Shown here piece by piece: positions 28,587 to 31,700 of a stretch of 64,000 nucleotides of DNA. Position 1 is the stretch's first letter, and every line of letters begins with the position of its first letter. A model generated the notes under the pieces. That model was not told the DNA's origin. It worked only from the letters and a program-made list of their open reading frames with translations, and made no database searches. A program made the position numbers and the translations under genes. This DNA is from Eledone cirrhosa (lineage: Eukaryota), in contig CAXHJY010000644.1 of NCBI GenBank assembly GCA_964016885.1, positions 1 through 64,000 on the forward strand, in the 5' to 3' direction.

Positions 28587-28673
28587 AACCTACATAAAAA
28601 TAAACCATAACCTACATAAAAATAACCACTACCACAGTCACCAACAGTCTTCTAAACAGGAAACTTCTTCCTC

Positions 28674-28680
28674 TTTTTTA
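28674..28680 (+). promoter_or_regulatory. Candidate -1 ribosomal frameshift slippery site U_UUU_UUA
   Basis: The ORF1 frame reads TCT TTT TTA GCC. The -1 frame (AGC CAT AAT..., from 28680) is the ORF2 frame, which opens after TAA at 28653. Confidence 0.65.
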
Positions 28681-28772
28681 GCCATAATGAATCTGGCAAA
28701 AGAACTGGAAAAAAACATTCGAGCTATCACCCAGCACCACCCTCCACTATCACCCCACTGCACAAACTCCCA

Positions 28773-31700
28773 TTGCTGCCATTAACAAACAAACAAATTA
28801 ACAACACACCAAAACAATTAAAACCATCCACTCTCGCCTCTACATTTTTGCTTAACGCCCAAGGCATCAGCCCTTCCACCAATACTCAAAAATGGAAGAT
28901 CAAATTCCTGGAGGACTGGATTGATGTCCATCCAAACCACATCCCTTTCTTCGTCCTCACTGAAACCCATCTCAGTAACCTCCACTTGGAAGCCGAGGTG
29001 AAAGTGAAAAATTTCAAAGCCATCCGTGCTGATCGCGCTGGCAGAAGAAAGGGTGGAACTGCCATTTATGTCCATAATTCTTTATCAACAGAGGCTATGA
29101 ACATATTCACTAATGGATACTGTGAAGCAGTCACTGTATTCAGTCAAACCAACAACCTATTAGTAGTTGGGCTCTATAGGCCACCCCAAACGCCTGTACC
29201 ATGCTTCAAGGAATGCCTCAACAGCATAAAGTGTTTCATCCAAGAGTGTCACCCTGACAACATCTTAATGATGGGGGACTTCAACCTCCCCGGAGTTGAC
29301 TGGTCCACAAACAGCCTGCCACCAGGTTCTTCTGCCTCAACCTCTGACAGGGAAGCTGTGGAATCGCTTCTTGACTTCATGGATGATTTCTTCCTATCCC
29401 AACTGGTGCTCGAACCAACGAGGTGCCACAAAAACGTCCTAGACTTAATTTTCAGCAATCACACTGACAATATCCACAATATTGCAGTGGAGAAAACTCT
29501 ACTCTCTGATCATGACATGGTTCTCTGTGATCTGAGATTCCACCGTCCAATATACAAACCCAATGTCATCTCTCCTGTCCATCCGTTTGACGCTATGGAT
29601 TTCCACAATGCAAACTGGGAAGCGATCAGTCATGATCTTGCACATGTCGACTGGTCCTTCACGCACACTCATACACCCACTAACATCAAAAAGTCCTGGC
29701 AGACATTTGTGGACACTGTTACAAACATATGTGCTAAACACACCCCATTAAGAACTATAAACAAATCTAAGAGCAGAATCCCTAGAAATAGAAAAACGCT
29801 CATCAGAAAAATTAAGAGAACGAACAAAAAAATCAACAAGCTGAAATACTGTCAGCAGCAACACATCAACTTGACTGCCATTTCATCACTAGAGATTAAA
29901 AAACATAACCTCCAAAACAACATAATGTCCCTCATCAACAATCAGAGAAGAGCTGAAGAGGCCTGGGCCATTGAGAAGATCAAACTCAATCCCAAAGTGT
30001 TCTTTTCATTTGCAAAAAAACACAAAATCACTGGCTCTACTGTTGGCCCTCTAATTGATGAAAATGGCACTCTTCAAGACAATGCTAAAACCATGGGTGA
30101 GATACTGCAGAAACAATACTGCTCTGTTTTCAGCAATCCTGATATGGCCGATCTGGGCTGTATCGGCGATGTTACTCCCCATTACACCTTATCGGACATA
30201 ACGTTTGGCGCCCCTGATGTCTTGGCGGCAATAAAGGAAATCAAGCATAATTCAGCAGTAGGTCCCGATAGGTTCCCTGCTTGTGTCTTGAAGGCGTGTC
30301 AACACCAACTTGCATCTCCTCTTGCCAATCTGTGGCGGAACTCACTGGATGCTGGATATGTGCCAGAAAACCTTCTATCCCAGTCTGTTGTCCCAGTTTT
30401 CAAAAAGGGAAACAAATCCCTTGCCGTGAATTACCGTCCAATCACACTCACCTCTCATATCATTAAGGTATTTGAGCGAGTGGTGAGATCGCGAATGACC
30501 CACTTCCTTGAGAGTAACAATATGCTGAACTCCAACCAGCATGGATTCCGTAATGGAAGGGATTGCCTGACGCAGCTACTGCATCACTTTGATGACATTT
30601 TGAGAGCCTTGGGAGAGGGTTCCAACACTGATGTTATCTACCTTGATTTCAGCAAGGCCTTTGACAGGGTTGATCATAACATTCTACTGAGAAAGCTGTC
30701 CAATATTGGTGTCACTGGAAAGCTGCTGCAGTGGATCAAGAGCTTCCTGTCAAACAGAACCCAACATGTTGTAGTTGAGGGAGTCAAATCAAGCCCAGCC
30801 AAAGTCAGTAGTGGGGTCCCACAAGGCACTGTGTTGGGCCCACTTCTCTTCATCATCTATATTAATGACATCACTGACATCATCAAACACAGCAACATTA
30901 AAATTTTCGCTGATGATTCCAAGCTCCAAAAGGTCATCAATGGCGTGGATGACCGGATAAGCCTTCAGTCAGACCTACTGGCTGTTACCCAATGGGCAGA
31001 AAAGAACAACATGTTACTGAACGAAGACAAATTCGAACTGATCCACTTTGGAAAAGAGGATGCTCTGAAACTCCCGTACTCCCTTCCCTCCGGGGAAACT
31101 CTCGTGGCATCTAACAACATCAGAGACTTGGGAGTAAACGTGGACAGCAACATAAGCTGGACCACGCATATAAGCAGCAAAGTTGACATGGCCCGCAGAA
31201 TGTGTTCCTGGATCCTCAGAACCTTCCAGTCGAGAGATTCCCGCACCATTATCCTTCTCTTCTCTACTTTCGCCCGACCACACCTTGAATACTGTTGTCC
31301 ACTGTGGTCTCCCCACACGAAACAAAGTATCATGAAACTTGAAGCTCCTCAAAGGGCAATCACGAAAAAGATAGATGGCATGTCAGACCTTGACTACTGG
31401 GGTCGATTAGAAAACCTAAAACTTTACTCACTCCAACGTCGCCGTGAGCGTTATATTATCTGCATGATGTGGAAAATGTTCCATCATCACTGCCCAAATG
31501 ATGTTGGCATCGCCTTCAAGATACACCCAAGGCTTGGGCCCCGTGCTATCCGTCCCATTCAAAAATCTAAATCGCAACTCATAACAACAATACGGCACAA
31601 TTATTTCACCTCAATCGGCCCTGCTCTCTTCAACATCACACCAGGACACGTCAAAACAGAAACTGACCACACAAAATTCAAGAAGTCTTTGGACAAATTC

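Follow-up and report, generated by a model that had tools for sequence, protein, structure and literature searches.

Introduction

In HIV-1 (human immunodeficiency virus type 1), the gag-pol frameshift site is U UUU UUA, which codes Phe-Leu in the 0 frame and is followed by Gly, and slow decoding of UUA has been described as a frameshift route for this virus (PMC6547452). A 2003 survey cited in PMC5009743 placed pol at -1 to gag in 28 of 51 animal long terminal repeat (LTR) retrotransposons; for non-LTR elements, the available parts of that paper name HeT-A and TART only. A -1 frameshift has been stated for open reading frame 2 (ORF2) of the Dictyostelium elements TRE5-A and TRE3-A (PMC5911963, whose legend names no slippery site for them). 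For L1, termination-reinitiation has been proposed, and for SART1 reinitiation with an AUG has been shown (PMC5972666). Here, we analyzed a 64,000-nucleotide (nt) stretch of Eledone cirrhosa DNA (GenBank assembly GCA_964016885.1, contig CAXHJY010000644.1, positions 1 to 64,000), hereafter called the window. It contains a long interspersed nuclear element (LINE) of a type that we call family B, with U UUU UUA at 28674-28680 on the forward strand, where ORF1 and ORF2 overlap. From its sequence and that of its relatives, this heptamer is probably a programmed -1 ribosomal frameshift site that gives an ORF1-ORF2 fusion.

How ORF2 is translated in LINEs with two ORFs has been settled for few elements, and L1, SART1, and Zorro3 make a separate ORF2 protein. 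The available parts of PMC4700185, PMC5006619, and PMC7175516 hold nothing on LINE frameshifting. Our literature search, with older element descriptions largely outside its reach, returned no study that surveyed CR1-like LINEs for slippery sites or tested such sites in them. Older descriptions of LINE elements may have suggested frameshifting from the overlap of the ORFs.

The family B element and its ORF1-ORF2 junction

The family B copy occupies 28585-31880 on the forward strand, as do all of its features given below. It is flanked by TA/CA microsatellites and closes with a tail of two 10-nt repeats (31861-31880). The copy is 5'-truncated, as judged from the microsatellite, which ends at about 28587, and an exact direct repeat of 19 nt (28585-28603 and 28607-28625) is found at this end. 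The ORF2 frame (28656-31793) runs for 1045 codons without a stop and encodes an apurinic/apyrimidinic endonuclease (APE) from about 28845 and a reverse transcriptase (RT) at about 30408-31139. A Pfam search of ORF2 returned these two domains (PF03372, PF14529, and PF00078) and nothing else. With an N-terminal APE and RT in ORF2, a short-repeat tail, and 5' truncation, family B is an APE-type LINE. We further call it CR1-like, which we presume from its RT motifs and from the esterase ORF1s of its relatives. Our trees place family B only among unnamed relatives.

A 65-codon remnant (28588-28785) consists of a low-complexity linker, the Phe-Leu at the slippery site, a helix-like tail, and a TAA stop at 28783-28785. 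Its position, its phase, and a weak likeness to the ORF1 tail of a related locus, L003, suggest that it is the end of ORF1; the two tails align weakly at the same Phe-Leu (E 0.05). A profile comparison of the remnant with a relative's ORF1 was not significant, and the remnant had no match to a Pfam domain.

Within this remnant, the heptamer is followed by G and is read in ORF1 codons as TCT TTT TTA GCC, which is the X XXY YYZ phase. The ORF2 frame lies at -1 relative to ORF1 and is closed upstream by a TAA at 28653-28655, so that it is open from 18 nt before the heptamer. The two ORFs overlap by 127 nt, and a linker of about 54 codons separates the heptamer from the APE, which begins at about codon 64 of the ORF2 frame. 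A sequence scan found no ORF2-frame AUG in 28656-29096; the first ATG is at 29097 (codon 148), inside the APE. A preliminary description of this locus had given the heptamer, the upstream TAA, the ORF1 end, and the -1 frame at these same positions and had seen no ORF2 AUG until well inside the APE, all of which we reproduced. Another heptamer in ORF1 phase, A AAA AAC (28710-28716), was absent from that description and is probably due to chance, since 38% of synonymous recodings (described below) yield some other heptamer.

Several side observations concern this copy. In sequencing run X1, contigs over the 28588-28790 region reach a summed depth near 10,000 at 28622-28723, compared with some 250 past 28790. 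The drop falls near the ORF1 stop, and run X15 has no such step; an ORF1-only derivative and a low-complexity match are both candidates for its cause. No variant of the heptamer region was seen among the 40 listed of 139 variant entries; of four sequencing runs used, X21 and X12 gave one record each. DNA resembling family B appears under 13 organism codes. The protein nearest to family B in the tree, P0063 (49% identical), falls in one cluster with a Gadus morhua UniRef entry.

Survey of related elements

A survey of phased heptamers against controls, proposed earlier for Repbase/Dfam, was run on public contigs instead, and in-phase heptamers proved to be far above chance. We fetched 160 loci by RT patterns alone, blind to the junction, and added L001 and L002 to reach 162. 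The metagenome part of the scan contributed the best 80 matches from 2 of 64 parts. A scorable APE start was present in 66 loci, while 3 ran off the contig end and 93 had no APE start. Together with three copies from the window, this gave 69 scorable junctions, with ORF2 at -1 in 32, at +1 in 10, behind a single in-frame stop in 7, and preceded by a long in-frame N-terminus in 7, leaving 13 unresolved. The 32 -1 overlaps represent 29 families, with less than 60% ORF2 identity between families. A strict set of 22 families omits L004, L013, L092, L119, L159, and both window families, three of those omitted having little ORF1; L159, in which a long ORF1 lies in another frame, is probably misclassed and is counted in the 29. 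For the null model, ORF1 was recoded synonymously in 2000 runs, with the peptide kept and the ORF2 frame held open. An ORF2 alignment was built from 46 sequences chosen out of 150 matches.

An in-phase canonical heptamer is present in 22 of the 29 families, compared with 2 and 5 families for the other two phases, and in 20 of 27 when the window copies are left out. These 22 families are spread over 10 of 13 tree groups. The overlaps hold 26 heptamers per 1625 codons versus 16 per 6781 codons of upstream ORF1 (p 2e-9). The peptide-preserving null gave a mean of 9.8 families, and none of the 2000 runs reached 22; for the strict set, 17 families were observed versus a mean of 8.0, again with no run as high. 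U UUU UUA was found in 8 families versus a null mean of 0.41 (0 of 2000). Other heptamers are still in excess in the 21 families that lack it, with 14 observed versus 8.5 expected (10 of 2000 runs). Such a heptamer was present at the ORF1 end in 1 of the 10 families of +1 elements and in 1 of the 7 families of single-stop elements.

Codon usage was compared as well. Phe-Leu is spelled T TTT TTA at 8 of 11 occurrences in the overlaps, compared with none of 11 in upstream ORF1 and 15 of 272 within the bodies of ORF2 (p 6e-8). Sister families can carry different motifs at the same place, with U UUU UUA in L010 and U UUA AAC in L026 and L013. A DNA alignment of seven junctions has the T run as its sole common feature. 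Protein N-termini add weak support, as Phe-Phe-Ser or Phe-Phe-Arg, the -1 reading, occurs in P0016, P0040, and P0053, 3 of about 11 long extensions. The in-phase heptamer is an RNA-level signal widely common to these LINEs, and we infer that the signal acts on ribosomes.

Additional searches were less productive. Single-query searches, run with ORF2, with ORF1, and with an ORF1 alignment, each gave two matches. No further scorable -1 junction was found in five genomes behind loci. Viral contigs yielded one doubtful 16-residue match, one RT fragment, and two blank searches, and phage sequences yielded no match. Loci L083-L162 are eukaryote-type LINE contigs inside many bacterial and archaeal genome bins and are most likely host DNA that was binned in.

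Family A and its kinship with family B

A second LINE family, family A, lies on the reverse strand of the window. Copy 1 (whole element 14285-18447) has an ORF1 at 17245-18447 with one CCCH-like finger (zf-CCCH, E 0.0033, below the Pfam cut-off) and an ORF2 with APE and RT at 14285-17515. Its U UUU UUA, again followed by G, lies at 17431-17437 in ORF1 phase and is overlapped by A AAU UUU. The -1 overlap is 268 nt, and no ORF2 AUG precedes the APE. In copy 2, where a break near 39940 interrupts ORF2, the site reads A TTT TTA at 42421-42427 (reverse strand), and the canonical heptamer was lost through its first base. An in-phase U UUU UUA arises in the overlap in 1.05% of 2000 recodings for family B and in 0.45% for family A.

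The preliminary description took A and B for independent families with no nucleotide similarity evident around the site apart from T TTT TTA G and argued from them to a clade-wide recoding mechanism. Our blastn list indeed holds no A-B match, and the two ORF2 proteins are 37% identical. However, FastTree places A, B, L003, L004, and L084 in one clade with a support of 100. The two families are therefore best counted as one inherited site rather than as two independent origins, and their heptamer probably came from a common ancestor. The argument from independence thus fails, and what stands of the clade-wide claim is the excess of in-phase heptamers across the surveyed families. The clade containing family B was sampled by three outside loci with a junction, besides the window copies. 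U UUU UUA is present in four of its five members with DNA, versus a null mean of 0.06, and in two of three without the window copies, versus 0.04. The fifth member, L084, has A AAA AAC. None of the four members with U UUU UUA has an ORF2 AUG before the APE.

Tandem CCCH-like fingers lie ahead of the Phe-Leu helix in the ORF1s of L003, L084, L102, L125, P0175, and family A (17248-18447). L102 and L125 share the CCCH-like ORF1, though their ORF2 falls outside the family B clade.

Opening of the ORF2 frame

The open stretch of the ORF2 frame begins near the heptamer. On the upstream side of the first heptamer, the frame closes after a median of 8 codons, which is background-like (p 0.09), and the overlaps average 56 codons versus 8.5 for background open runs. 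Downstream of the heptamer, the ORF1 peptides of 17 families predict 52.7 stops in the ORF2 frame and none is present, although this test is biased upward, because heptamers were sought solely inside the open stretch. The open stretch of family B by itself is not significant (P 0.23).

Proposed mechanism and RNA structure

In the mechanism that we propose for family B, ribosomes would translate ORF1 up to the Phe-Leu, and the majority would terminate at 28785. A minority would shift backward by one base at U UUU UUA and continue into a Gag-Pol-like ORF1-linker-APE-RT protein. The predicted junction reads ...SSSFL (or SSSFF) then SHNESG..., followed by the linker of about 54 residues and the APE. 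The shift rate is predicted to be low because there is no downstream structure; it would be set by the heptamer, possibly by slow decoding of UUA.

Family B shares with retroviral-type -1 signals an in-phase heptamer, a -1 ORF that runs open from the heptamer into its first domain without a start of its own, and conservation beyond what the peptide needs. Several results weigh against programmed frameshifting, including the absence of the stimulatory stem-loop or pseudoknot that such signals have 3' of the heptamer. The preliminary description had pointed to a weak downstream structure, gcca-N9-tggc. The 4-bp hairpin does form at 28681-28697 and is weak (centroid -4.4 kcal/mol). Its first base directly adjoins the heptamer, and 63 of 200 shuffles fold as well (z -0.41); the hairpin is not credible as a stimulator. 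The RNA after either family B heptamer folds no better than shuffles (z +0.26 and -0.23), and the same holds downstream of the site in family A (z +0.26). A crude search for H-type pseudoknots was negative for both B and A. Over 23 sites, z averaged -0.44 (t-test p 0.03, Wilcoxon p 0.09) with 4 sites below -1.5, and upstream regions fold about equally well, with 5 below -1.5. Downstream folding and the pseudoknot search gave no common stimulator. Since family B has no stimulatory structure, we do not file it as a standard retroviral-type member.

The survey has its own points on this side. Canonical heptamers are missing from 7 of the 29 families, and an ORF2-frame AUG precedes the APE in 12 of 29. 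In the strict set, U UUU UUA alone is found in only 4 of 22 families versus a null mean of 0.33, a value reached by 1 of 2000 runs. Furthermore, the families are kin, and the p-values therefore overstate their independence.

Alternative explanations

The T run and the AG that follows it could instead form a 3' splice acceptor, with an upstream ORF1 exon joined to 28682 and a spliced RNA that encodes the fusion. We consider this unlikely, although part of the evidence speaks for it and so against frameshifting. In family B, 16 pyrimidines precede the AG (28664-28681; pyrimidine share of 0.70 upstream of the AG), which is the tract and AG of an acceptor. A G follows 8 of the 10 sites tested versus a background of 0.31 (p 0.002), and this G is what completes the AG. 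It is kept though the next residue varies (Val, Ala, Asp, Glu, or Gly), and in L003 an AG lies two bases later. Splicing would also account for the missing RNA structure and for the point where the ORF2 frame opens. However, the T run measures exactly six at each of the nine U UUU UUA sites, which come from different families, and at L125, and the upstream pyrimidine share ranges from 0.25 to 0.70, with low values in family A (0.35) and L102 (0.25). L125 has both frames open and no AG for 24 nt, and the AG of L003 is in another phase. Sister families have U UUA AAC in the corresponding position, and heptamers that form no acceptor are in excess on their own. The ORF1 phase is also constant behind three ORF1 types (CCCH, esterase, and other). 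As for the G, the HIV-1 site has one next to it as well, because Gly follows Phe-Leu in the 0 frame. Two weak points can be added: none of the listed joints or loose ends lies at 28682, with 17 loose ends beyond the listing and the donor side missing from the truncated copy, and a contig of run X15, which we guess to be RNA, spans 28664-28739 unspliced. Leader trans-splicing at the same AG was considered separately and rejected, as the next AUG (28687) lies in the ORF1 frame.

Reinitiation near the ORF1 stop, which we likewise regard as improbable, would have ORF2 restart by termination-reinitiation at a non-AUG codon and would leave the heptamer as a relic. Near-cognate codons are available in the ORF2 frame of family B upstream of the APE (CTG 28758, TTG 28773, and CTG 28776), within 30 nt of the ORF1 stop. 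There are precedents in L1 and SART1 (PMC5972666), and loss of the L1 ORF2 AUG is tolerated (PMC1965478). In 14 of 29 families, no more than 15 codons separate the ORF1 stop from the APE start, which also counts against frameshifting, and the open stretch of family B, not significant by itself, fits a restart too. Reinitiation nevertheless leaves unexplained both the excess of in-phase heptamers and the overlaps that far exceed background open runs. The nearness of the ORF1 stop to the APE has a simpler cause, because linkers are poor in stop-creating codons: for a stop to arise in the ORF1 frame, the ORF2 frame must mostly encode Leu, Ile, Val, or Met, and the codons for these account for 0.13 of linkers and 0.26 of the APE. 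SART1-type stop-start coupling was rejected for family B, in which no ORF2 AUG adjoins or overlaps the ORF1 stop.

It is very improbable that the heptamer is a by-product of a conserved Phe-Leu that opens an ORF1 helix, or is there by chance. Phe-Leu followed by Met does recur in the ORF1 tails of P0003, P0004, P0175, L003, L102, and L125. With the peptide kept, however, the recodings fall far below the eight families with U UUU UUA, and the T TTT TTA spelling at 8 of 11 in overlaps compares with 15 of 283 elsewhere, so that this explanation is strongly disfavored. Least probable of all is RNA polymerase slippage on the T run, adding one U and bringing ORF2 into frame on some transcripts, which would suit the six-T run and require no RNA structure, yet is blind to a codon phase that is respected in 22 families versus 2 and 5 and ill suits the several heptamers of mixed sequence, such as U UUA AAC and G GGA AAC.

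Possible routes to an ORF1-ORF2 fusion in related elements

With -1 frameshifting at U UUU UUA preferred for family B, a broader view can be put forward tentatively, with a little less than even confidence. CR1-like LINEs may make ORF2 as a Gag-Pol-style fusion and switch among -1 frameshifting, stop readthrough, and in-frame fusion. Under this view, four kinds of heptamer would serve the 22 positive families, and the family B clade would use U UUU UUA without an RNA stimulator.

The other junction classes are as follows. In the single-stop class (L020, L025, L027, L035, L053, L089, and L096), ORF1 and ORF2 share one frame with one stop between them. None of the seven has an ORF2 AUG before the APE, and the stop is TGA-C in four and TAG-C in one. 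A C after the stop codon is a leaky context. By its sequence, this class is a candidate for readthrough. Seven other loci (L052, L124, L127, L138, L139, L141, and L145) have 234-276 codons in frame before the APE and are possible natural single-ORF fusions. The +1 class comprises L031, L034, L041, L049, L093, L101, L112, L117, L144, and L151, with an ORF2 AUG before the APE in 6 of 10. Of these, L093 is possibly a one-base mutant, because it keeps U UUA AAC plus the stop as in its -1 kin L099 and L100.

If CR1-like elements frameshift, their RT would be tethered to the ORF1 protein in a fixed, low proportion, as happens in retroviruses. Annotation from the first AUG would then trim the endonuclease at its beginning; among family B relatives with a first-AUG call, the nearest three (P0063, P0032, and P0047) start inside motif I. 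Many natural eukaryotic shift sites would also be added, seemingly without a stimulator.

Other repeats in the window

The window contains further repeats apart from families A and B. A Penelope-like ORF (RT plus GIY-YIG) is present at 8182-10845 and 11632-13806 on the reverse strand, within a 3-kb duplication that is nearly exact; a piece of 219 nt lies inverted at 13781-13999. A tandem array with a 310-nt period and over 99.8% identity covers 48962-52913. Another non-LTR element at 55922-58339 (reverse strand) has an APE plus RT ORF broken near 56040. Finally, a non-LTR element at 59334-62759 (forward strand) has an RT ORF of 1141 codons without APE and is partly repeated at 62914-64000.

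Comparison with known systems

SART1 and mammalian L1 share with family B the problem of how to make ORF2 from a two-ORF LINE RNA (PMC5972666). They make a separate ORF2 protein that starts at or after the ORF1 stop, whereas family B has no stop-start AUG and its two ORFs overlap by 127 nt. Within the Jockey group, CR1/L2 lineages resemble family B in having APE and RT in ORF2 and a variable ORF1 (PMC4120745). Esterase ORF1s of the type described there were found by Pfam in L010 and L099. ORF1s with CCCH-like fingers, as in the family B clade, are a difference: "CCCH," "frameshift," and "overlap" each occur 0 times in the main text of PMC4120745.

Animal LTR retrotransposons offer comparable evidence, a -1 overlap with a well-placed heptamer, in a different class of element (PMC5009743). 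TRE5-A and TRE3-A are APE-RT LINEs for which ORF2 is stated to require a -1 frameshift (PMC5911963). They differ in having a C-terminal zinc finger and tRNA gene targets, where family B has just APE and RT by Pfam and sits in microsatellites. In HIV-1, a stem-loop follows the site and the shift has been measured, while family B, a non-LTR element and not a retrovirus, has no such structure. At the site itself the two are alike: in both, U UUU UUA codes Phe-Leu, a G comes next, and the RT ORF overlaps a structural-type ORF at -1 without a start of its own (PMC6547452, PMC5009743).

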